Shown here: positions 938 through 9,829 of the stretch, one piece after another
How the letters are laid out: each line of letters starts with the position of its first letter
How positions within the stretch are numbered: position 1 is the stretch's first letter
Source: Planctomycetia bacterium
Lineage (GTDB): Bacteria; Planctomycetota; Phycisphaerae; Phycisphaerales; SM1A02
Assembly: GCA_005799495.1 (NCBI GenBank)
Contig: SYGP01000028.1
Coordinates: 6,913 to 70,912, forward strand
DNA length: 64,000 bases
Reading direction: 5' to 3'
Translations under genes and position numbers: made by a program
The notes under the pieces: generated by a model
The model's input: only the letters and a program-made list of their open reading frames with translations
Databases searched by the model: none
Told to the model about the DNA's origin: nothing

Positions 938-1768
938 ATGACGACAACCTCGCAAGGCGAGAACAAGCTGTTTCGCGAGAAGGCGATGCAGGCGGTCGGT
1001 GGGAGGAACCGGCTCAACACATTGAGTCCCGTGATCTCGCCGCGCCTCTGGGTATTTGCGGCCGCGCTCGGATTCCTCATTGTGTCGGTGATCGCGTGGG
1101 GATTCCTTGGCGAAGTGCCCGTGGCCGTGTTCGGTACGGGAGTGTTCTTGAAGGGTGAACGGATCACTGCACTCGTTGCCCCCCTCGATGGACAGGTGTC
1201 GCAGGTCCTGAAGCGCCCTGGCGACGAGGTGCAGGCTGGTGATGTGATTCTGCGGCTCGAGAGTCAGGAGGCGCAGGGGGTGCAGGTCCAGGGAGGTGTC
1301 GTCGTTGCCGCCCAGGCCGGCCGCGTGACTTCGGTGAGTGTGGTCGAAGGCGATGCAGTGCGCGATGGTCAACATGTGTGTGCGTTGGTGATCGGCAAGG
1401 ATCAGCTGCGCTGCATCGCGTTCCTCCCGCTCGGCGATGCGAAGTTGATAGAGCCAGGGTTCGAAGCACTGCTGCACTTTGTGACTCGGACCGCGGGCAC
1501 CGACGGAGAAGCTCGCGGCAAGGTCGTTGCCGTCGAGTCGTTCATGACGACTGGAGACCGCATCCTGCAGCGCGTGCCGAATGCGGACTTCGTTCGCATG
1601 GTGCAGGAACGCTTCGGCACCGTCTGTGAAGTGGAAATCGAAGTGAAGGAGTCCACGCTTTCCGATCCAGTGACGACTGGTGTCCCATGCGACATCGAGA
1701 TCATCGTGGATCATGTACGCCCTGTGGAACTGGTGTTTCCCGGACTTCGATCCAAGTCGATCCGATGA
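938..1768 (+). CDS. HlyD-family membrane fusion/secretion protein, short form lacking the coiled-coil hairpin (NHLM-type bacteriocin secretion protein-like)
   Basis: The N-terminus LFREKAMQAVGG..LNTLSPVISPRLW is followed by one TM segment. Lipoyl-like half-motifs APLDGQVSQVLKRPGDEVQAGDVILRLES and GRVTSVSVVEGDAV are present. The stop overlaps the next start (ATGA at 1765-1768). Confidence 0.75.
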   Translation: MTTTSQGENKLFREKAMQAVGGRNRLNTLSPVISPRLWVFAAALGFLIVSVIAWGFLGEVPVAVFGTGVFLKGERITALVAPLDGQVSQVLKRPGDEVQAGDVILRLESQEAQGVQVQGGVVVAAQAGRVTSVSVVEGDAVRDGQHVCALVIGKDQLRCIAFLPLGDAKLIEPGFEALLHFVTRTAGTDGEARGKVVAVESFMTTGDRILQRVPNADFVRMVQERFGTVCEVEIEVKESTLSDPVTTGVPCDIEIIVDHVRPVELVFPGLRSKSIR

Positions 1769-3996
1769 GCGAAGCAAGCACCGAGTCCGCTGCCGTTGCA
1801 GAGCCTGAGGTGCCGCCGCCGCCCTCACTGCCGAGTGGACCGCCTCGTCGCGTTCGCTGCCCCACGGTAATGCAGGTTGTTGCAGCGGAGTGCGGTGCCG
1901 CGAGCCTGTGCAGCGTGCTCGGGTATTTCCGCGCGTATCGACCGCTCGAGGAAGTCCGCGAAGCGGTGGGCGTGGACCGAGACGGGTCCAACGCGCGCCG
2001 AATCGCCAATGCAGCGCGACACTTCGGACTCGAGGTGGAGGGTCTCAAGTGCGAAGTCGATGGACTCGGTGATGTGCAGCTTCCTGCGATCCTCTTCTGG
2101 GGACTCAATCACTTCGTGGTGCTGGAGGGGTGGAACACGCGCGAGTTCCTGCTGATGGATCCCGCCACGGGGCGACGCGCGGTCAGCCCCGAGGAGTTCG
2201 ATGAGGAGTTCAGCGGCGTGGTCCTGAATGTGCAGCCGAGTGATCGGTTCGTCGCATCCGGTGGACCGCCTTCGGCGCTGAAGTTGGTTCTCGGATGGAT
2301 GCGTGGATCGGGCGCTGCCGTCTGGCTCAGTGTGCTCCTCGGATTGCTGCTCGCCGTGCCGATGGTGACCGTGCCTGGACTCGCTGCAGCCTTCATCGAT
2401 CAGGTTCTGTCCGACCAACGCGATGGATGGACCTGGTCGCTCGTGGGTGTGGCGCTCGGTGCGATGGCGGTCGAGGCGATCCTGCTGTTGGTGCAGCGCA
2501 GCGTTCTCGCGCGCGTCGAGCAGCAACTCTCGCTGGAACGCAGCGTGGACTTCCTGCGCCAGATATTCCGTTTGCCATCCACATTCTTCGGTCAGCGGTA
2601 CCCAGGCGACATTGCTGAACGCGTCTCGGCAAATGATCAGGTGGCGTCGATGCTCGCGTCGCAGTTCGCGCCTGCCATCGTGCAGGTCCTCACGCTGGCG
2701 GCATTCCTGATCGCCATCTCGTTGATCAGTGCCACGATGGGGGTGATCGCATTCCTATCGGTCGCTGCAACCCTCACCATCCTGCTGCTCGCCGCGCGCG
2801 CTCGAGTGGATCAGGCACAGGCCTTGTCGCAGCAGGAGGGCATGAAGCAGGGAGCGATCGTGGCGGGACTGATCACGCTCGAGTCGCTGAAGGCGGGCGG
2901 GCGGGAATCGGACTTCTTCGCGCGTTCGATGGGATTCACCGCGCGTGTCGCGTCTGCGCGACAGCGTGCCGCACTGTTGTCCAACATGGTCAGCATCGTG
3001 CCCTCATGGCTGCAGTCGGTGGTGGTGTCCGCCATCGTGCTCGGCGTGGGTGGCCTGCAAGTGATGGAAGGTGAGATTTCCATCGGCACGCTGCTGGCAC
3101 TGCAGATCCTCGTGATGGGATTCATGTCTCCCGTGACTCACCTCGCTGAACTGCTGCGGGAGATCCAAACGGTGCGCGCGGATCTCGGTCGGCTCGACGA
3201 TGTGATGTGCCATGCGACGGATCCGCTGGCCTTGGAGCCGCGCGTGGATCACAAGGCGGATATCGAGTACGCCGCTGGGCAACTCGAACTGCGCAACATC
3301 ACCTTTGGATATGGACATGGACAGGCACCTCTGCTCAAGGACTTTTCACTGACGATTCGCGCAGGTGGGCGTGTGGCGATCGTGGGCGGAACGGGCTCGG
3401 GGAAGTCGACGGTGTCACGGTTGGCCGCGGGTCTGCTCGAGCCGTGGGAGGGGGAAGTGCTGCTCGACGGGTTCCCGCTGCGCGATGTGCCGCGTCACAT
3501 CCGAGCGGCGAGTCTGTCGACGGTCTTTCAGCGTCCGTCGTTCTTCGAGGGTTCCATCCGCGAAAACCTCTCTCTCTGGAATCCCGACATTCCCGATGTG
3601 TGGTTGCTCGAAGCGGTGGATGATGCGCAGCTCACCGAGGTCGTCCACTCGCGTGGAGGGCTCGATCATCCGGTGGCGGAAGGCGCATCGAACTTCTCGG
3701 GCGGAGAGGCGCAGCGCCTCGACATTGCCCGTGCACTCTGTCGGCGACCAGCTGTCATCGTCCTGGACGAGGCAACGAGCGCCCTCGATCCGACCACCGA
3801 GTTGGCGATCGATGCGGCGCTTCGTCGGCGGGGGACGACGTGCCTCGTGGTGGCGCATCGGCTGAGCACCATCCGTGATGCGGACGAGATCGTTGTGATG
3901 GATCAGGGCGAGGTGGTCGAACGCGGCACGCATGAGGAGCTGATCGCGAAGCAAGGGCGTTACCACGAACTGATCTCCGGGGGGTCGCACGCATGA
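1765..3996 (+). CDS. Bacteriocin-type ABC exporter with N-terminal C39 peptidase domain (peptidase/permease/ATPase fusion)
   Basis: C39 motifs are QVVAAECGAASLCSVLGYF (catalytic Cys), NHFVVLEG (His) and MDPATG. A 6-TM region follows, with Walker A GGTGSGKST, signature FSGGEAQRL and Walker B VIVLDEATSALD. ATGA overlaps occur at both ends. The start at 1765 was chosen over the ORF-track start at 1687. Confidence 0.9.
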   Translation: MSEASTESAAVAEPEVPPPPSLPSGPPRRVRCPTVMQVVAAECGAASLCSVLGYFRAYRPLEEVREAVGVDRDGSNARRIANAARHFGLEVEGLKCEVDGLGDVQLPAILFWGLNHFVVLEGWNTREFLLMDPATGRRAVSPEEFDEEFSGVVLNVQPSDRFVASGGPPSALKLVLGWMRGSGAAVWLSVLLGLLLAVPMVTVPGLAAAFIDQVLSDQRDGWTWSLVGVALGAMAVEAILLLVQRSVLARVEQQLSLERSVDFLRQIFRLPSTFFGQRYPGDIAERVSANDQVASMLASQFAPAIVQVLTLAAFLIAISLISATMGVIAFLSVAATLTILLLAARARVDQAQALSQQEGMKQGAIVAGLITLESLKAGGRESDFFARSMGFTARVASARQRAALLSNMVSIVPSWLQSVVVSAIVLGVGGLQVMEGEISIGTLLALQILVMGFMSPVTHLAELLREIQTVRADLGRLDDVMCHATDPLALEPRVDHKADIEYAAGQLELRNITFGYGHGQAPLLKDFSLTIRAGGRVAIVGGTGSGKSTVSRLAAGLLEPWEGEVLLDGFPLRDVPRHIRAASLSTVFQRPSFFEGSIRENLSLWNPDIPDVWLLEAVDDAQLTEVVHSRGGLDHPVAEGASNFSGGEAQRLDIARALCRRPAVIVLDEATSALDPTTELAIDAALRRRGTTCLVVAHRLSTIRDADEIVVMDQGEVVERGTHEELIAKQGRYHELISGGSHA

Positions 3997-6707
3997 GCAT
4001 CGCTGCGAATGACTTTGCAAGCGTGTTCGCCGCTCTCGGTGGCATACGACAGACTGCGGATCGTCGCGGAGGCGTTCCCTTGCAGGATGATTCGATCCTG
4101 ATCCTGCTCTCCGGTTCCGTGCAGGTGTTCGCCTATCGCAAGGGACATCAGCGCCGCCACCGAATCGGCGAACTGCTGCCGGGTTCTGCGGTGCAGGGAC
4201 CTCTCTTTCCCGTAGACCTGATTCCCGAGTCGACGGCGGAGTTCCTGCGCTTGCCCTCCGGCGCGCTGGCCGCGGCTGCGTCGGGCACTGCCGCGGAGGC
4301 ACTGCGGCTGGGCTTCGCCAAGACGCTCGCGGGGTGCGGTGGAACGCTCAGCCCGAAACTCTCGCTTGCGGATGCTGCGAAGCGTGTCACGGAGGAGTTG
4401 GAACGCCGTGGGCAGTCGACCGCCGAAGCGTCGTATGCGCGGCACATGCGTCGATTGGTCGATACGGCAAGCGGATCGCTTGCGTTCGAGCAGCGGATCC
4501 AATCGCTCGTCACGACGCGCACGGGTCCGCGTTGGATGTATCAGCCCGATACTCGCCTGCCGCCCGTGGTGCGCGCGTGCATTCAGTTGGCGGTAATGAT
4601 GGGCTACGAACCCGATCAGGTGCCGACGCGTGTCCCGCGGGATGTGACGAGAAAGCCCGAGCAGACCTTCGCACATGTGGCAGGGCTTGGCATTCGCACG
4701 GTGTTCCTTGATCCAGGGTGGTGGAAGCAGGACATTGGATCAGTGCTCGCGTTCCGTGCCGAGGATCAGGCCCCTGTGGCGGTGCTCGCCACACCCAAGG
4801 GATTGATGGCGTTTGTGCACTCCTCTGGTGCGATCGCGGGGCCTTTCCCGGTCGACGAAGCGTTCGCGTCGACGCTGGTCAAGACGGCATCGCAGTTCCA
4901 TCCCACGCTCGGACCACAGCGGATCAGCGTTTGGAAGTTCCTGCGCTTCATCACGAAGGGATCGGAGCATGACTTCCTGTTGGCGTTCATCATGGCTGGA
5001 CTCGGTGTGCTCGTCAGCCTCGCGATTCCCATCGGCACCGGGCTGCTCATTTCTCGGGTGATTCCGAGCGAGAATCGCTGGGGACTCTTCTTCGTCGGGA
5101 TGGTGCTGCTCGCGACGACAGTCACATCCGCCGCGTGCTCGTTTGTCGTCTCGAACCTGCTGCTCCGTGCCGAGACGCGCATGGATGGGCGGGCACTCGG
5201 AGGGATTCTCGACCGTTGCCTGCGCATGCCTGTCGAGGCGTTCCGAACCTTCACCAGCGGCGATCTCGCCGATCGCATCCTGTCGGTGGGCAACATGCAG
5301 CAGGTGCTCTCCGGCTCTGCGGTTGCCGCAATCATGGCGGGCGCGTTTTCCGTGGTTTACCTCTCGGTCATGGCAGCCGTGGATGTGAATGCGGCGATCG
5401 TCGGCTTCGCATTCATGCTGATCGCCGTGCTCGTCAGTGTGCTGATCAGCTTGAAGCGCGCGCGAATCTCGATGGATTCGCTCGAATCGCACGGCGGACT
5501 GTCCTCCGTCATGCTCCAATACATCGGCGGTATCGATGCGCTGCGGGGAGCGGCGGCCGATCAGTTCGCCGTACTCCGATGGCTGGAGCGGTTCCGCGTG
5601 GCGCGATCGTTCTCGATGCGAATCCACCTGCTGGATCGGTTTTATGAGGTGTTTACCGCTGCGTTCCCAGTGCTTTGCACGACCGTGTTCTGGATCATCT
5701 TTTCGCAGCGCTTCGCATCGCCAGGCGCCTTGCAGAGTTCGCCGATCGATGCGCCCGTTCGTGTCGCGCAGTTTGTGATGTTCATCGCGGCGTTCACCTC
5801 CGCGCTGTTTTCCTTGCTCGAAGTCGGGACGCGACTGGGCGATCTTGCGCTGCTGCAGTCCACATTCCGCCGCATCCGACCGATCCTCGATGCCGAGGTG
5901 GAGTCGTCGGGCGAGCGTGAGGTGCCGGGCGTGATCTCTGGACAGATCACGATCGCCGATGTTCGTTTCGCGTACCCAGGGAGTGCGAACGAGATTCTCT
6001 CCGGGGTCAACATCCGCATCGAGGCGGGGGAGAATGTCGCAGTCGTGGGCGCGAGCGGGAGCGGCAAGTCCACGCTGCTGCAACTGGTGCTTGGTCTTCG
6101 CAAGCCCACGAGTGGGAAGGTGCTGCTCGATGGCAAGGATCTCGACCGTCTCGACTTGGTCTCGGTGCGACGGCAGATCGGTGCCGTCGTTCAGAACACG
6201 CGCATCGTTCCAGGGGCCATCCTGGAGAACATCGTGGGAAGCACGCTCTACACCAGTACGGATGCGCAGCGGGCGCTCGAGGCAGCTGGTTTTGCCGACG
6301 AGGTGGAACGGATGCCGATGGGCCTTCACACCTATGTGACCGACCAAACTCTGTCGGGTGGACAACTGCAGAAGCTGCTCATCGCGCGAGCGCTGGTCGC
6401 GCGGCCAAAGATCCTGGTCTTCGACGAGGCGACCAGCGCGCTGGATGAGATTTCGCAGGCGCAGGTCGTGTCGAGCCTGGAGGGACTTCGCGCGACCCGC
6501 ATCATCGTCGCGCATCGACTCAGCACGGTGCGGTCGTGCGATCGAATCTTCGTGATGGAGGCGGGGCGTGTTGTGCAGACGGGAACATTCGACGATCTCG
6601 TCCGCATGGAGGGTCGCTTCCGTGAGATGGCTCGTCGACAGATGCTCGATGTGCCGCCCATCGATGCGCCTTCGAGCCCCTCCGCCGGATCTGCACGAGG
6701 AAAATGA
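3993..6707 (+). CDS. Second ABC exporter of the cassette (permease/ATPase) with a ~330-aa N-terminal extension (cNMP-binding-like plus C39-like, probably non-catalytic)
   Basis: The ATG overlaps the upstream stop (ATGA at 3993-3996). TM region starts about residue 330, Walker A GASGSGKST, signature LSGGQLQKL and Walker B ILVFDEATSALD are present. The N-terminus has no transporter motifs. Confidence 0.9.
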   Translation: MSIAANDFASVFAALGGIRQTADRRGGVPLQDDSILILLSGSVQVFAYRKGHQRRHRIGELLPGSAVQGPLFPVDLIPESTAEFLRLPSGALAAAASGTAAEALRLGFAKTLAGCGGTLSPKLSLADAAKRVTEELERRGQSTAEASYARHMRRLVDTASGSLAFEQRIQSLVTTRTGPRWMYQPDTRLPPVVRACIQLAVMMGYEPDQVPTRVPRDVTRKPEQTFAHVAGLGIRTVFLDPGWWKQDIGSVLAFRAEDQAPVAVLATPKGLMAFVHSSGAIAGPFPVDEAFASTLVKTASQFHPTLGPQRISVWKFLRFITKGSEHDFLLAFIMAGLGVLVSLAIPIGTGLLISRVIPSENRWGLFFVGMVLLATTVTSAACSFVVSNLLLRAETRMDGRALGGILDRCLRMPVEAFRTFTSGDLADRILSVGNMQQVLSGSAVAAIMAGAFSVVYLSVMAAVDVNAAIVGFAFMLIAVLVSVLISLKRARISMDSLESHGGLSSVMLQYIGGIDALRGAAADQFAVLRWLERFRVARSFSMRIHLLDRFYEVFTAAFPVLCTTVFWIIFSQRFASPGALQSSPIDAPVRVAQFVMFIAAFTSALFSLLEVGTRLGDLALLQSTFRRIRPILDAEVESSGEREVPGVISGQITIADVRFAYPGSANEILSGVNIRIEAGENVAVVGASGSGKSTLLQLVLGLRKPTSGKVLLDGKDLDRLDLVSVRRQIGAVVQNTRIVPGAILENIVGSTLYTSTDAQRALEAAGFADEVERMPMGLHTYVTDQTLSGGQLQKLLIARALVARPKILVFDEATSALDEISQAQVVSSLEGLRATRIIVAHRLSTVRSCDRIFVMEAGRVVQTGTFDDLVRMEGRFREMARRQMLDVPPIDAPSSPSAGSARGK

Positions 6708-6802
6708 AAAGCGATCGGCGGCCGTTCAGGAGCAGAGAACGGTCACCGACCGCGTGGTCATTCACCGAAACCGACAGGACGCCGGCCGGAGACTGGCGCA
6801 GA

Positions 6803-6952
6803 TCAGCGCTTTGGAGTCCGCGCTTGGCGGGCGGCGGTGGAGTTGCGAGAGACGCGGCTGGCGCCGCCTCCGCTCGCCTTCTCGAGATCCGCGTCCGAAA
6901 GCTTGGTGGACTTGGTCGTTGTCTTCGTCGAGTTCGCTGGTTTCGATGACAT
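6803..6952 (-). CDS. Candidate double-glycine-leader precursor peptide (49 aa): MSSKPANSTKTTTKSTKLSDADLEKASGG/GASRVSRNSTAARQARTPKR
   Basis: This is an internal ATG (6950-6952) of the listed ORF 6803..7087, with AAGGGA 6 nt upstream. By my count 38 of 49 codons end in G/C. LSDADLEKASGG matches the GG-leader consensus LSxxELxxIxGG. The ORF lies 96 nt from, and convergent with, the C39-ABC cassette. Confidence 0.5.
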   Translation of the reverse strand: MSSKPANSTKTTTKSTKLSDADLEKASGGGASRVSRNSTAARQARTPKR

Positions 6953-7061
6953 GATGTTTCCCTTCATGGTCGTCCAGCGCCTTGGCGTACGCAGCCGAAG
7001 AACTGAACAAGACAACCGTACGATACAGTTGGGAGATGGCAAGTCGTTTTGAGGTTTTCTT

Positions 7062-8105
7062 TTGAACCCCGCCACACTGTCTGCCATGGGGCCATTCGCC
7101 GTGGTGGGAGCAACGGGCGCGGTGGGTCAGGAGTTCCTGCGAATTCTGCAGGAATCGGGCGCGCCCCTCGATGGCCTGCGGCTCTTTGCCAGTCCGCGGT
7201 CCTCAGGCAAGACCGTCCGGGTTGGGACGCGGGAGGTCGGCATTGAACCGCTGCAGGAGGGCTGTTTCCGCGGAGTGCATATGGTGTTCTTCTCGGCGGG
7301 AAAGGGAGTCTCGCGTGAGTGGGCGCCGCGGGCTGTTCGCGATGGCGCGTGGGCGATTGACAACTCGAGTGCGTTCCGGATGGATGCTGCCGTTCCGCTG
7401 GTGATCCCGGAGGTCAACGGTGATGTGCTGGACACCTGTCGCACGCCGTGCATCGTTGCCGTGCCGAACTGTTCGACCATCGTGGCGCTCGTTGCGACGA
7501 CGCCGCTGCACCGCGAGGCACGCGTGCGTCGCATGGTGGTGTCGACCTATCAGGCGGTCAGCGGCGCAGGGGCGGCGGCGATGCGCGAACTGGAGCAGCA
7601 GGCGCGCGCGTATGCCGCTGGCCAACCGCTGGACATGAGCGTGTTCGGCCGGCAGTGTCTCTTCAATTGCTTCTCGCACAACAGTGCCGTGGGCGCGGAG
7701 GGCTACAACGAAGAGGAAGCGAAGCTGCTGCACGAGTCACGGCGCATCTGGAATGATCGGCAGCTCCGTGTCACGGCCACCTGCGTTCGCGTGCCTGTCC
7801 TCCGCGCGCACTGCGAGTCGATCGCGCTTGAGTTTGAGCGACCGCTCTCCGAGTCGCGTGCTCGCGAACTCCTTGCGGAAGCGGCGGGCGTGGAGATCGT
7901 CGACGACCGCATCGGCAACCGCTTTCCCGAACCGCTGTCCGCTGCAGGCCGCGATCCAGTCCTGGTCGGGCGGATTCGCCCGGATTGGAGCCTCGACGCG
8001 GGCTGCGGGCTGCAGTTGTTCGTGGCGGGGGATCAGATCCGCATCGGTGCCGCGCTGACGGGCTGGCGCATCGCCGAGCGTCTCTCGCCCGTCATTTGCG
8101 GCTGA
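7062..8105 (+). CDS. asd: Aspartate-semialdehyde dehydrogenase
   Basis: Motifs VVGATGAVGQEFL, VPNCSTIVAL and STYQAVSGAGAAAM are present. The TTG at 7062 has an upstream GAGG. ATG at 7086 (MGPFAVVGATG) is an equally plausible start. Confidence 0.9.
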   Translation: MNPATLSAMGPFAVVGATGAVGQEFLRILQESGAPLDGLRLFASPRSSGKTVRVGTREVGIEPLQEGCFRGVHMVFFSAGKGVSREWAPRAVRDGAWAIDNSSAFRMDAAVPLVIPEVNGDVLDTCRTPCIVAVPNCSTIVALVATTPLHREARVRRMVVSTYQAVSGAGAAAMRELEQQARAYAAGQPLDMSVFGRQCLFNCFSHNSAVGAEGYNEEEAKLLHESRRIWNDRQLRVTATCVRVPVLRAHCESIALEFERPLSESRARELLAEAAGVEIVDDRIGNRFPEPLSAAGRDPVLVGRIRPDWSLDAGCGLQLFVAGDQIRIGAALTGWRIAERLSPVICG

Positions 8106-9034: not shown

Positions 9035-9829
9035 ATGTGGGGCACGATCATCGTCGGTGGCTGTGTGGCGGGAGCGATCGCCATCTCGGGCGTCTGGCGG
9101 TCTGCGAGATTCGTGAGGAGCCGGTGGCAGCTCAGTGCGGGCAACTCGCTGCTGCTGTTCGTGACTCTTCAGGTGCTCGCTGCCCTGGGTGCTGCCATGG
9201 GATCGCGCATGGCGCCTCCGCAGACCGAGGGGAGTGCTCCGTCCATCGACGGCACGCTCTGGATGATCGGTTCGGCTGCATTGCTGCAGATGGTGGCAGC
9301 CCTTCTGTTTCTCATGCGATCCGACCACGTTGCACACTCGTGGAGCCGCGCGAAGGCTGCGCTGCTCGGTGCCGCGGCGCTGGCTGCAGCTTGGTTTCCG
9401 CTGCAGGCGATCGGCACCGTGGTCGCAAGCGTTCAAGTGGCGCTCGGCGGTCCCGCCGTCCCGCTCGAGGGTCACAGCACACTGCAACTGCTCGGCACGA
9501 GGCCGATCGACCTGCGGCAGTGGCTCCTGATGGGCTGTGTGGTGCTCGTTGTTCCTGCGGTCGAGGAGGTCATGTTCCGCGGCGCGATGCTTGGAGTGCT
9601 TCGGCGCGTTGGGCTTTCTGCCTGGACTGCCATCCTGCTCACCGCAGCGATCTTTGCGCTGGTGCACATCCCTGCGCTGGTTGGGGGTGCCGTTGCACCG
9701 GGACTGGCGATGCTCTTCGCGCTCGGTGCGCTCCTCGGTTGGTGCGCTGCACGAACGGGTTCCCTCGCAGCACCGATCATGGCGCACATGCTCTTCAATG
9801 CCGTGAATCTCCTGCAGTCGATGCGCTGA
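9035..9829 (+). CDS. CPBP-family (CAAX-type) intramembrane glutamic protease
   Basis: Motifs VEEVMFRG (EExxxR), FALVHIP (FxxxH) and HMLFNAVN (HxxxN) are present, with multiple TM segments. The start at 9035 was chosen so the gene does not overlap the divergent trpC. Confidence 0.75.
   Translation: MWGTIIVGGCVAGAIAISGVWRSARFVRSRWQLSAGNSLLLFVTLQVLAALGAAMGSRMAPPQTEGSAPSIDGTLWMIGSAALLQMVAALLFLMRSDHVAHSWSRAKAALLGAAALAAAWFPLQAIGTVVASVQVALGGPAVPLEGHSTLQLLGTRPIDLRQWLLMGCVVLVVPAVEEVMFRGAMLGVLRRVGLSAWTAILLTAAIFALVHIPALVGGAVAPGLAMLFALGALLGWCAARTGSLAAPIMAHMLFNAVNLLQSMR

Follow-up and report, generated by a model that had tools for sequence, protein, structure and literature searches.

A conserved double-glycine-leader peptide encoded beside a C39-ABC exporter in Phycisphaerae, with copies in phages: a candidate extracellular signal

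Peptidase-containing ABC exporters are, to our knowledge, widespread in Gram-negative and environmental bacteria, and most of them have no known cargo. The cargos that are known are mainly toxins or Gram-positive pheromones. In Streptococcus, the short double-glycine precursor ComC is cut and exported by ComAB, a C39-ABC transporter with an accessory protein, as the competence-stimulating peptide (CSP), an unmodified cationic peptide of 17–21 residues that is a signal and not a toxin and is sensed by the adjacent ComDE two-component system. Class II bacteriocins and microcins that use peptidase-containing transporters (PCATs), such as PCAT1-CtA and the LahT substrates, have a leader consensus and an adjacent transporter and are cleaved after Gly-Gly by the C39 domain (PMC6959990; PMC6363468). 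The export trio TIGR03794/03796/03797 of NHLP/Nif11 systems has been linked to Gly-Gly precursors and has a wider distribution than NHLP (Haft et al., 2010; PMC2887384); a 'Motif 2', the 13 residues up to Gly-Gly, is shared with TIGR01847 leaders (PMC2887384). RaxX of Xanthomonas is a Gram-negative GG-leader precursor that uses the peptidase-containing ABC transporter RaxB/PctB (bioRxiv 10.1101/442517); its product is a hydrophilic signalling peptide, not a bacteriocin, which depends on RaxST for tyrosine sulfation and imitates a plant hormone. Phages also encode short precursors, the arbitrium AimP/RRNPP propeptides; AimP has a Sec signal, is released by host machinery, is processed by extracellular proteases to a 6-residue product and has AimR encoded next to it (PMC10075063).

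The gene considered here lies in a 64-kb stretch of Phycisphaerae DNA (the window), at positions 6803–6952 on the minus strand, and consists of 49 codons and a TGA stop (6803–6805). It translates to MSSKPANSTKTTTKSTKLSDADLEKASGG (leader) followed by GASRVSRNSTAARQARTPKR (core). The initial annotation had placed its start at an internal ATG of a listed ORF (6803–7087), with AAGGGA 6 nt upstream and with 38 of 49 codons ending in G or C. These details hold: the ATG is at 6950–6952, AAGGGA is at 6959–6964, and the resulting GC3 of 0.78 compares with 0.72–0.78 for the neighbouring genes. Other details needed correction. The ORF was called unlisted, yet NCBI MAG annotations already contain it as the hypothetical proteins P0001 (77 aa, with an over-extended start) and P0002 (49 aa). 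It does end close to the stop of the second ABC gene (6707), at 95 nt rather than 96 nt, and the overlapping plus-strand ORF 6704–6949 does use AGA and AGG (three and two codons, respectively), but at a GC3 of 0.59 instead of about 0.55. An exact-sequence look-up of P0003 returned nothing on record, and the peptide matched no family in Pfam, NCBIfam, PHROGs or PADLOC.

That this ORF is a real protein-coding gene is virtually certain. Among four close genomes (the window and L001–3), third codon positions account for 14 of the 15 variable columns, and there is a single non-synonymous change. Estimates of dN/dS range from 0 to 0.28 with dS up to about 1, in lineages whose synonymous sites are near saturation; the frame is thus conserved at dN/dS below 1, as the initial annotation had asked of a genuine precursor. 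Length differences among the peptide genes are in-frame 9-nt indels, and start, stop and length are kept across distant lineages. Purifying selection is seen in this frame only. The other frames over the gene vary (13–15 variable residues) or carry stops in relatives, the plus-strand frames among them, and stops in L054, L057 and L048 interrupt the antisense frame with which the gene shares third positions. We rejected the plus-strand ORF 6704–6949 as a gene that an ATGA overlap would couple to ABC2 (13–14 variable residues, register shifted in L002) and the antisense ORF 6837–7052, which has stops in distant relatives and extends into an indel-rich region. An upstream start, giving a 94-aa or 77-aa version, was also rejected on account of in-frame stops in relatives: a stop lies four codons before the ATG in L001, L038–L040 and L044, and the extension to 7087 is not conserved.

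The peptide gene appears to be its own transcription unit, judging by its ribosome-binding site and by a covarying hairpin with a T-run. The Shine–Dalgarno-like AAGGGA (6959–6964, minus strand) has a purine-rich equivalent in all relatives (AAAGGGA, AAGGAA, GAGGAG) and has travelled with the ORF into the phage contig L044. Downstream, at 6711–6753 on the minus strand, is a terminator hairpin with a 16-bp stem and a 9-nt loop containing an invariant UGCUCCUG. In an RNAalifold alignment of seven lineages the 16 pairs are kept, with one pair broken in two sequences, and compensatory double changes occur at pairs 63/103, 64/102, 68/98 and 76/90; the minimum free energy is −28.5 kcal/mol (z −5.0). 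The T-run TTTTCATTTT that follows (6701–6710, minus strand) extends over the stop codon of the oppositely oriented ABC2 and is found on the peptide's strand only. G.U pairs do not by themselves make the hairpin strand-specific, as both strands fold well (−28.5 vs −26.1 kcal/mol); only the T-run does so. The hairpin is present in a single copy in the window, so it is not a repeated element, and no Rfam family was found at 6600–7200, hairpin included. Phage copies of the gene are without the hairpin.

Upstream, in the 133-nt divergent intergenic region, two blocks on the minus strand (7014–7043), CTTGCCAT (7036–7043) and CTGTATCGTACGGTT (7014–7028), are invariant in the four close genomes, where 66 of 154 upstream columns vary, and they are still recognizable in L047 and L057. 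They are candidate promoter or operator elements. A promoter scan found no sigma-70 consensus promoter. There is one terminator-like match at 7013–7031, inside the upstream conserved block.

The gene converges on a three-gene export cassette, with which it is not co-transcribed. On the plus strand this comprises a short (276 aa) HlyD-like periplasmic adaptor (938–1768; Pfam HlyD_3, 1.8e-8), ABC1, which joins a C39 peptidase to an ABC permease/ATPase (1765–3996; Pfam Peptidase_C39, 5e-30), and ABC2, an ABC permease/ATPase without a peptidase but with an extra N-terminal region of ~190–300 residues (3993–6707). The listed ORF of ABC1 starts at 1687; its likely start is the ATG at 1765, where start codon and HlyD stop form an ATGA. 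Counted from this ATG, the C39 domain takes up residues ~25–175 (window ~1840–2290). The NHLP-type trio gives the best match for each protein, although every score is below the curated cut-off: TIGR03794 for the adaptor, a partial match (121.9 bits; cut-off 156.2), TIGR03796 for ABC1 (812 bits; cut-off 853.3) and TIGR03797 for residues 191–884 of ABC2 (645.8 bits; cut-off 709.4). Gene order and domain content fit. The best solved relative of the ABC1 C39 domain is LahT150 (6mpz, 2e-34), and ComA structures match it at E 3e-10. Its Gln, Cys, His and Asp are intact when aligned with PCAT1 and LahT150, and a C39-ABC with its catalytic residues is thus encoded with the precursor, as for PCAT substrates. 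The scores below the NCBIfam cut-offs, the shortness of the HlyD-like protein and the convergent orientation of the gene count against export by this cassette.

The N-terminal region of ABC2 may, with low confidence, adopt a cyclic-nucleotide-binding-like fold over residues ~5–140. In a shallow AF2 model (mean pLDDT 51.5) these residues reach a pLDDT of 70–80, and the top 50 Foldseek matches in the PDB are all cyclic-nucleotide-binding/CRP-type domains (E ~1e-4). A homologue search with the N-terminal 316 residues yielded two fragments only, and the region has no sequence relative in the PDB. PADLOC matches of the ABC proteins were discarded as generic ATPase similarity.

The leader (residues 1–29; 6866–6952, minus strand) has a variable, hydrophilic N-terminal part (residues 1–16) and a recognition segment, K17–G29 (KLSDADLEKASGG), that is conserved in the host and phage alignments. 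The double-glycine consensus read by the initial annotation is borne out, with Leu at −12 and −7, Asp at −8, Ala at −4 and Gly at −2 and −1. There is also an Asp at −10, position −4 is Ala in host and Val in phage versions, and position −15 is Ser, not hydrophobic. The leader has the hydrophobic, acidic and Gly-Gly positions of PCAT substrates, whose leaders have ~15–30 residues, end in Gly-Gly (or Gly-Ala/Ser) and carry hydrophobic residues at −4, −7 and −12, often at −15 too, with acidic ones around −8 to −10. A loose regular expression for double-glycine leaders matched once in the six-frame translation of the window, at this ORF, whereas shuffled sequences gave a mean of 0.05 matches (n = 100), so the motif is more than chance. 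The phage version of the peptide has weak, leader-only matches to ComC (E 0.11), Bacteriocin_IIc (E 0.12) and Mersacidin (E ~0.1).

The predicted core (residues 30–49; 6806–6865, minus strand) is as cationic as first described, with five Arg, one Lys, no acidic residue and no Cys; it has a GRAVY of −1.39, a pI of ~12 and no hydrophobic stretch. Its calculated average mass would be 2170.4 Da if the cut falls after G28–G29, although three consecutive glycines leave the exact site uncertain. In all host and phage homologues seen, G30, S32, R33, R36, N37, S38, R42, R45, P47, K48 and R49 are invariant; Q43 is replaced by His or Arg, and T46 by Arg, in single later matches. The core is rich in Ser/Thr, N37-S38-[TS]39 being invariant, and its conservation among host lineages and phages exceeds that of the leader.

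The initial annotation had set the peptide apart from NHLP/Nif11 precursors. This stands for the leader, which has 29 residues against ~70–85 and no nitrile-hydratase-like or Nif11-like domain, and no match at E ≤ 1 was found to TIGR03793/03798 or any other NCBIfam model with either the 49-aa or the 94-aa version, nor any in Pfam. It does not stand as unrelatedness. The locus has the same three-gene cassette architecture, with model scores under the curated cut-offs, and the NHLP precursor P0013 (PF02979), which carries KLSDADLKAASGGG, matches this leader over the 13 residues before Gly-Gly, KLSDADLEKASGG corresponding to Motif 2 of P0013, KLSDADLKAASGG. NHLP/Nif11 cores are hypervariable and rich in Cys, Ser and Thr, whereas the core here is conserved and without Cys and has no tailoring enzymes nearby. 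From these similarities the peptide is best regarded as a substrate with a short leader for an NHLP-like exporter.

The gene order ApaG, HlyD-like, C39-ABC, ABC2, peptide, asd is found in all related Phycisphaerae loci that include the downstream DNA (L001–3, L037–43, L046, L047 and L054–58). The frame and its GG motif stay beside orthologous exporters even where these have diverged; in L047, identities are 83% for the peptide, 72% for ABC1, 70% for Asd, 63% for ABC2 and 45% for HlyD. Three loci (L054–56) contain a tandem paralogue whose leader is the same (MPQKPSKKSKASKTPGKSVRLSDADLKRASGG) but whose core, also cationic, is unrelated, a modular layout that points to leader and cargo. Selection, synteny, the C39 residues and this paralogue thus favour the original proposal of a double-glycine substrate with an atypical cationic core, and the peptide is probably cargo of the adjacent cassette. 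The locus sits among housekeeping genes; its direct neighbours are asd and ABC2, and no immunity-like gene is adjacent. No outer-membrane component or receptor was found near the peptide gene in the host loci; this, the Ser at −15 of the leader and the ambiguous cut among three glycines weigh against the reading of an exported signal.

Homologues of the peptide also occur on two kinds of phage or phage-like contig. In L048–53, with genes for a large terminase (phrog_675, 2.5e-52), a DNA ligase (4e-70) and the N-terminus of a tail fibre, a 41-aa homologue (P0005) begins 5 nt after the preceding gene and ends 2 nt before the next, and its GC content (45%) is that of the contigs (44–46%). Its neighbours in a late or virion-type cluster are the terminase and putative structural genes, and such a position might indicate a function in the phage particle and not in signalling. 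The second kind, L044 and L045, comes from two samples, has 43% GC and encodes an HNH endonuclease; both contigs belong to the Lake Tanganyika series from which L038–L043 were also obtained. It holds a 174-nt segment of 63% GC that is 94–95% identical to the host loci L038/L040. This segment begins 19 nt ahead of the ATG and ends 5 nt past the stop, and no other host-like DNA occurs in the contig. L044 is classed as phage-like on limited evidence, namely the HNH gene, PHROG N-terminal matches, ORFans and a protein family shared with the terminase-bearing contigs. An assembly chimera was rejected, since phage-like DNA flanks the insert on both sides and the same junctions recur in the second sample at 99.9% identity.

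In both phage types the peptide copy is similarly placed, next to genes of the MIKIANNLQ family. The recovered phage stretches encode no exporter, no recognizable modifying enzyme accompanies the copies, and no receptor-like family is found among the flanking genes. A family-alignment scan of IMG/VR viral contigs found no relatives of the peptide, and tblastn of the phage version against 50,697 GenBank phages gave no match. The phage terminase has relatives only 24–29% identical in GenBank phages, which indicates an uncultured lineage. The presence of a near-identical peptide gene in two kinds of bacteriophage suggests that phages copy a host signal.

We propose the following model. Residues 18–29 (LSDADLEKASGG) would form the double-glycine leader that is bound by the C39 cysteine-peptidase of ABC1 and cut after Gly28-Gly29, and the 20-residue basic, hydrophilic core would be pumped out by ABC1/ABC2 and the HlyD-like adaptor. 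Outside the cell, the core would act by sequence-specific recognition as a signal or ligand and not as a membrane-active toxin. Phages carry the precursor and would leave export to the host pump, so that an infected cell may release the host-type peptide, in mimicry or hijacking of the host signal. Cleavage, its site and export are predicted here from homology and gene order; the extracellular action, the signal function and the benefit to the phage are likewise proposed. We put the probability of this reading as a whole, a C39/ABC-exported, sequence-specific extracellular peptide that is a signal rather than a toxin and is mimicked by phages, at roughly 55%. That the peptide is a signal or ligand rather than a weapon is itself a tentative call, on which we stop a little short of even odds; it draws on the greater conservation of the core than of the leader, the hydrophilic core, and the housekeeping locus without an adjacent immunity-like gene.

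The described signals resemble this peptide in part. Like ComC, it is a short double-glycine precursor with a cationic core of comparable length, here a predicted 20 residues. CSP, however, has a hydrophobic patch and diversifies into pherotypes, whereas the core here is entirely hydrophilic and nearly invariant, and ComDE has no counterpart, there being no histidine kinase or response regulator within ~9 kb in any host locus. The setting also differs from that of ComAB, being a diderm Planctomycete with a two-ABC, NHLP-type cassette. With RaxX the peptide shares the GG leader and the peptidase-containing ABC transporter in a Gram-negative setting, but its core has no Tyr, no sulfotransferase is encoded nearby and the two sequences have no similarity. 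AimP is likewise a short phage-encoded precursor that relies on host machinery for release; here, in place of a Sec signal and an adjacent TPR receptor, we find a GG/PCAT leader, no hydrophobic signal segment and no recognizable receptor. Unlike AimP, the peptide is also a conserved chromosomal gene of the host. In our literature search we found no earlier account of the family, no GG-leader peptide described from Planctomycetes and no GG-leader precursor described from phages.

Among the alternatives, the best placed, although unlikely, is an exported, unmodified cationic antimicrobial peptide of bacteriocin or microcin type, which phages would use against competitors of the host or for lysis. 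A GG leader with a PCAT cassette is the classical export route of bacteriocins, and the core is strongly cationic. In every host locus a CPBP/Rce1-like membrane protease gene lies two genes from the peptide, and this family is often tied to bacteriocin immunity. Between that gene and the peptide, however, lie asd and trpC, and common descent alone may account for the synteny. The initial annotation had already noted that the core is unlike class II bacteriocins, and the present data agree: it has no hydrophobic or amphipathic segment, it is highly conserved instead of hypervariable, its place in the core genome is fixed and lacks a neighbouring immunity gene, it has phage-borne homologues, and bacteriocin models of Pfam and NCBIfam do not match the host peptide.

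Another possibility, which we consider slightly less probable again, is that the peptide is a RiPP precursor whose Ser, Thr or Asn residues, for example in the conserved Asn-Ser-Thr/Ser, are modified by enzymes encoded at a distance, the core being conserved for enzyme recognition. The Ser/Thr-rich core with its invariant triplet would suit this, as would the frequent service of NHLP-type cassettes to precursors with distant tailoring genes (PMC2887384). RiPP cores under one leader are usually variable, however, and no host locus has a tailoring enzyme within ~9 kb in either direction, nor is one recognizable with the phage copies. Lanthipeptides combine Cys in the core with a LanM/LanB/LanC/LanKC/LanL enzyme; the distinction from them drawn at the outset is upheld, as Cys occurs in no homologue and no lanthionine synthetase was found in the neighbourhood.

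The product may instead stay in the cell or enter the phage particle as a small arginine-rich RNA or DNA binder, comparable to arginine-rich-motif peptides or to phage internal head peptides, with the leader-like segment and the exporter unrelated to its function; we judge this improbable. A 20-mer so rich in arginine might just as well be an intracellular nucleic-acid binder, a point against the signal reading, and the composition of the core is one that we take to resemble nucleic-acid-binding peptides of this kind. The virion-type cluster of the phage copies would fit, and the invariant UGCUCCUG of the host terminator loop could be a binding site, but the phage copies lack that hairpin. Against this reading, both host and phage copies conserve the GG-leader segment, the paralogue keeps it while swapping the core, and the C39 exporter invariably lies alongside the host gene, even in lineages whose synonymous sites are saturated. 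The notion that the ORF is a chance open frame in GC-rich intergenic DNA, where high GC gives many spurious ORFs, or that a real gene lies on the plus strand, where ORFs 6704–6949, 6568–6954 and 6837–7052 overlap it, is already refuted by the codon-position, dN/dS and frame-stop evidence, by the conserved start, stop and length, and by an ATG at 6704 that is out of register in L002.

If the signal model is followed further, a freshwater Phycisphaerae clade would secrete the conserved, arginine-rich 20-residue peptide as a cell-to-cell signal through an NHLP-type C39/ABC exporter, and its phages would have acquired the precursor and tuned it to the host, so that infected cells broadcast the signal through the host pump; one phage lineage would hold an ameliorated copy and the other a freshly captured one, ~95% identical to the host gene. 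This extended scenario is doubtful. At this locus an NHLP-type exporter stands beside a short, hydrophilic, highly conserved peptide that looks unmodified, which offers a concrete hypothesis of extracellular peptide signalling, or of surface or nucleic-acid binding, in Planctomycetes that is testable with synthetic peptide. The phage copies link uncultured phages to Phycisphaerae hosts in the same lake and are a possible case of a host secretion leader borrowed to release a host-identical peptide. If this is true, phage–host peptide communication would reach beyond the Sec-dependent arbitrium/RRNPP systems of Firmicutes, and, as far as our literature search could find, phages would here be using a double-glycine/PCAT-dependent peptide, and Planctomycetes would gain a proposed peptide signalling system, each for the first time.

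The minus strand at 6803-6952 translates to MSSKPANSTKTTTKSTKLSDADLEKASGGGASRVSRNSTAARQARTPKR followed by a stop codon, and on comparative sequence evidence this 49-codon ORF is a protein-coding gene. The initial annotation was correct that its ATG (6950-6952) is an internal start within the listed ORF 6803..7087, with AAGGGA (6959-6964) 6 nt upstream, and that 38 of its 49 codons end in G/C (GC3 0.78, against 0.72-0.78 in the three cassette genes and trpS). Only two figures changed: the ORF does end close to the stop codon of the second ABC transporter gene, ABC2, at a distance of 95 nt rather than 96, and the overlapping plus-strand ORF 6704..6949, which does use AGA (three) and AGG (two), has 59% rather than 55% third-position G/C. 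The ORF had also been called unlisted; in some NCBI MAG annotations it is already a hypothetical protein, as P0001 (77 aa, with an over-extended start) and P0002 (49 aa). Among four close genomes (the window and L001-L003) the region is only 81-85% identical whereas the peptide is 98-100% identical; 14 of the 15 variable columns inside the ORF are third codon positions, 66 of 154 columns vary upstream of it, and Ala6 to Thr is the sole non-synonymous change. Four of the five alternative frames carry 13-15 variable residues in the same genomes. Against more distant lineages, dN/dS for the peptide frame was 0.05-0.28 at dS 0.6-1.2 (Nei-Gojobori), below 1 as the initial annotation had anticipated for a conserved frame, and length differences between lineages are due to an in-frame 9-nt indel in the N-terminal part. 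With such a pattern of substitution, a chance ORF retains next to no probability and is refuted. Two other candidates were rejected: the antisense frame with shared third positions has internal stops in L054, L057 and L048, and an upstream extension to 7087 meets an in-frame stop four codons 5' of the ATG in L001, L038-40 and L044.

The loose double-glycine-leader pattern [LIVM][STN]xx[ED][LIM]xx[IVALT]xGG matches once in the six-frame translation of the 64-kb window, at this ORF, with 0.05 matches expected (mean of 100 composition-preserving shuffles). The leader residues are as first read, with Leu at -12 and -7, Asp at -8, Ala at -4 and Gly-Gly at -2/-1; Asp also occupies -10, the phage version has Val at -4, and position -15 holds no hydrophobic residue. 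The leader of P0013, an NHLP precursor (PF02979) from the profile search, ends in KLSDADLKAASGGG and resembles the leader end of the peptide, so the recognition segment is that of bona fide clients of an NHLP-type cassette. In every host locus reaching downstream of ABC2 (L001-3, L037-43, L046, L047, L054-58) the peptide gene has the same place and orientation, in the fixed order ApaG, HlyD-like adaptor, C39-ABC, ABC2, peptide (convergent) and asd (divergent). Even in L047, the most distant locus, KSTKLSDADLEKASGGGASRV is unaltered and the peptide is 83% identical, compared with 63% for ABC2, 72% for ABC1, 45% for HlyD and 70% for asd. The most telling single fact is a tandem duplication of the peptide gene, promoter region included, in L054-L056, where the second copy (L054:9453-9620) keeps the leader MPQKPSKKSKASKTPGKSVRLSDADLKRASGG and has an unrelated cationic core, RRLGGGTKAPAARGSGIPISILK; the same leader with a different core implies a modular layout, as a secretion leader predicts. 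A remnant of the terminator-loop motif lies 3' of the duplicate. The peptide is thus probably the cargo of the adjacent cassette (probability about 0.8), the substrate relationship proposed initially being supported by the fixed synteny, the intact C39 active-site residues and this leader-sharing paralogue.

The cassette lies on the plus strand, downstream of a sodium:dicarboxylate symporter fragment and ApaG (360-869), and comprises a short HlyD-like adaptor (938-1768; best NCBIfam model TIGR03794, 122 against a cut-off of 156 bits), the C39-peptidase ABC transporter ABC1 (listed ORF from 1687; TIGR03796, 812 against 853 bits) and ABC2, an ABC permease/ATPase without peptidase (3993-6707; TIGR03797, 646 against 709 bits). 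The three models form the 'NHLP bacteriocin export' trio, and all three scores fall below the curated cut-offs. As listed, ABC1 overlaps the HlyD-like gene by 82 nt (1687-1768); its true start is probably the ATG at 1765, in an ATGA overlap with the HlyD stop, which would give a 743-aa product in agreement with relatives annotated at 740-765 aa. Among solved structures LahT150 (6mpz, 2e-34), a PCAT double-glycine protease, comes nearest to its peptidase domain, and all four active-site residues of PCAT1 (Gln, Cys, His and Asp) are conserved in the alignment. The study that defined this export cassette observed that it is wider in distribution than NHLP and Nif11 precursors, so that further peptide families were to be expected (Haft et al., 2010; PMC2887384). 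The peptide had been described as unlike NHLP/Nif11 precursors, and it belongs to neither family, having no long leader domain and no NCBIfam model match; the leader end, however, is NHLP-type, and so, by its best-scoring models, is the exporter. This and the existing hypothetical annotation are the two corrections to an interpretation that is otherwise supported. ABC2 has an extra N-terminal region (residues about 5-140; 3993-4420) with no match in Pfam or PDB sequence searches; its AF2 model is shallow (pLDDT 70-80), and the top-50 Foldseek PDB hits are all cyclic-nucleotide-binding/CRP-type domains (E about 1e-4), which hints, at low confidence, at a CRP-like beta-barrel and that export might be ligand-gated.

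We propose that the C39 domain of ABC1 would bind the precursor through the leader helix and cut after Gly28-Gly29, a site uncertain by one residue because of the GGG run. The core would then be translocated by ABC1 with ABC2, probably a heterodimer since the genes are paired, and would cross the periplasm via the HlyD-like adaptor and then some outer-membrane channel.

The peptide gene has its own terminator. The block between its stop and that of ABC2 is nearly invariant among close relatives and forms a hairpin with a 16-pair stem (6711-6753, minus strand; RNAalifold, seven lineages), with compensatory double changes at four pairs, for example G-C to A-U in three sequences, and broken pairs at one stem position only. 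A T-run (6701-6710, minus strand) follows on the peptide strand only. The minimum free energy is -28.5 kcal/mol (z -5.0), and because the opposite strand likewise folds well (-26.1) the hairpin might also stop ABC2 transcription. The 9-nt loop holds UGCUCCUG (6727-6734, minus strand), invariant where synonymous sites are saturated while the stem covaries, an unusual feature for a terminator, and may be a binding or regulatory site. The loop sequence includes CUCCU, the anti-Shine-Dalgarno core. The element is unique in the 64-kb window and matches no Rfam family. Upstream, CTTGCCAT (7036-7043, minus strand) and CTGTATCGTACGGTT (7014-7028, minus strand) are kept within an otherwise variable spacer. 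The latter, in the divergent peptide/asd intergenic region, is near-palindromic (ACTGTA-TCG-TACGGT; the palindrome is lost in L054) and may be an operator. No sigma-70 consensus promoter was found upstream, by a scan whose rules do not cover this phylum's promoters.

Homologues are also carried by phages. The 41-aa P0005 (MAKKLSKKLTDEELKKVTGGGNSRVARNSTKVRQARTPKRA), the most divergent member, lies outside any bacterial locus; examination of fourteen contigs (up to 47 kb) gave six places (L048-L053). The L048-type large terminase (PF05876; phrog_675, 2.5e-52) is 24-29% identical to cultured-phage terminases, and these contigs also encode an ATP-dependent DNA ligase (phrog_114, 4e-70) and a tail-fibre N-terminus, the rest being ORFans. 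The peptide gene starts 5 nt after the preceding gene and stops 2 nt short of the next, with 45% GC against 44-46% for the contig, and we regard it as a long-resident, compositionally adapted copy. The second type, L044, is phage-like (43% GC; PHROG-only N-terminal matches, other proteins without a Pfam family) and was recovered again, 99.9% identical, from a second sample (L045). Directly downstream of an HNH endonuclease, its peptide gene occupies a 174-nt insert (63% GC) with 94-95% identity to host loci L038/L040. The insert starts 19 nt 5' of the ATG, taking in the ribosome-binding site, and extends 5 nt past the stop; it is the only similarity between L044 and any host locus. An assembly chimera was rejected because phage-like DNA flanks both sides and the insert recurs in two samples. 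This copy represents recent capture or replacement, the source being a host lineage whose contigs bear names from the same metagenome series. In both phage types the peptide gene adjoins runs of genes whose products start with MIKIANNLQxxLxK(Q)A (L050:9288-14576; L048:9288-13168; L044:10157-12075); one 303-aa protein has two internal copies, one product is DUF6321, and several contain membrane-like segments rich in Gly. The common N-terminus resembles a signal for targeting or assembly. The recovered stretches of these incomplete contigs showed neither an exporter nor a C39 peptidase, and searches of IMG/VR and GenBank phages returned no member of the family.

The family is small: 1.84 billion representative proteins searched exhaustively with HMMER, and 5.8 billion searched with a profile, yielded only about ten distinct sequences and, among the matches, no larger protein containing the core. 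The N-terminal 16 residues vary across the family and the leader end and core are conserved (core consensus G-x-S-R-[VT]-[AS]-R-N-S-[TS]-x-x-R-[QHR]-x-R-[TR]-P-K-R). This is the reverse of bacteriocin and RiPP families, with their conserved leaders and hypervariable cores, and such conservation suggests that a specific partner recognises the core. Hydrophilic by its GRAVY of -1.39, the core has a pI of about 12 and no Cys, Tyr or hydrophobic stretch. Our tentative preference, at slightly short of even odds, is for a signal or ligand over a weapon, acting outside the cell in a sequence-specific way. The reasons are the conserved, hydrophilic core, the stable core-genome position of a locus that has no immunity gene, and the retention of host-matching copies by phages. 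The analogy would be with ComC/CSP-ComAB and RaxX-RaxB, in which a PCAT removes a GG leader from a signal.

A cationic antimicrobial peptide is an unlikely alternative: the hydrophilic core and lack of an immunity gene exclude the peptide from class II bacteriocins. The surroundings of the peptide gene in the window include no gene for a tailoring enzyme, immunity, a kinase or a regulator; on the asd side the neighbours are housekeeping genes (asd, ATG 7086 to 8105, divergent from the peptide gene, then trpC, a CPBP/Rce1-like membrane protease, trpS, a XerC/D-type recombinase and pdxA). The CPBP/Rce1-like intramembrane protease (about 9390-9790, plus strand), two genes from the peptide beyond asd and trpC, keeps its place in all host loci; proteins of this family are often linked to bacteriocin immunity, and here the linkage may reflect no more than shared descent. 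A little less likely still is a RiPP precursor whose modifying enzymes are encoded far away; the invariant Asn-Ser-Thr/Ser offers a lead, and lanthipeptides are excluded by the absence of Cys and of a synthetase. All host and phage homologues have this tripeptide (N37-S38-T39; 6836-6844, minus strand), which conforms to the N-x-S/T sequon of some bacterial N-glycosyltransferases, none of which was seen near the peptide gene. Two unrelated proteins from the representative-protein search, P0007 (276 aa) and P0006 (295 aa), each have 5-6 tandem repeats resembling GG/AG leader ends (VEVVELSDADLEAIAGAG...NHNET and KLEDxxLPKASGGLDTAAE) and may be multi-core precursors. Least likely of the three alternatives is a peptide that binds nucleic acids and either remains intracellular or goes into the virion; leads here are its richness in arginine, the virion-type context in phages and the invariance of the hairpin loop.

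Nor is the favoured signal or ligand an arbitrium-type phage peptide, as it has no Sec signal and no adjacent receptor, and PADLOC gave generic ATPase similarity only, so the locus is no recognised defence system. A GG-leader peptide with a PCAT is a well-known kind of system. Neither this family, nor double-glycine peptides in Planctomycetes, nor GG-leader precursors carried by phages turned up in a literature search, an absence that is no proof. The nearest relatives of the window are uncultured freshwater Phycisphaerae (Planctomycetota), several of whose MAGs and contigs bear names from the Lake Tanganyika series. What is new is the pairing of a conserved, arginine-rich and purely hydrophilic core with an NHLP-type cassette as its probable exporter, in a peptide family that is confined to one freshwater Phycisphaerae clade and is present twice in phage genomes.
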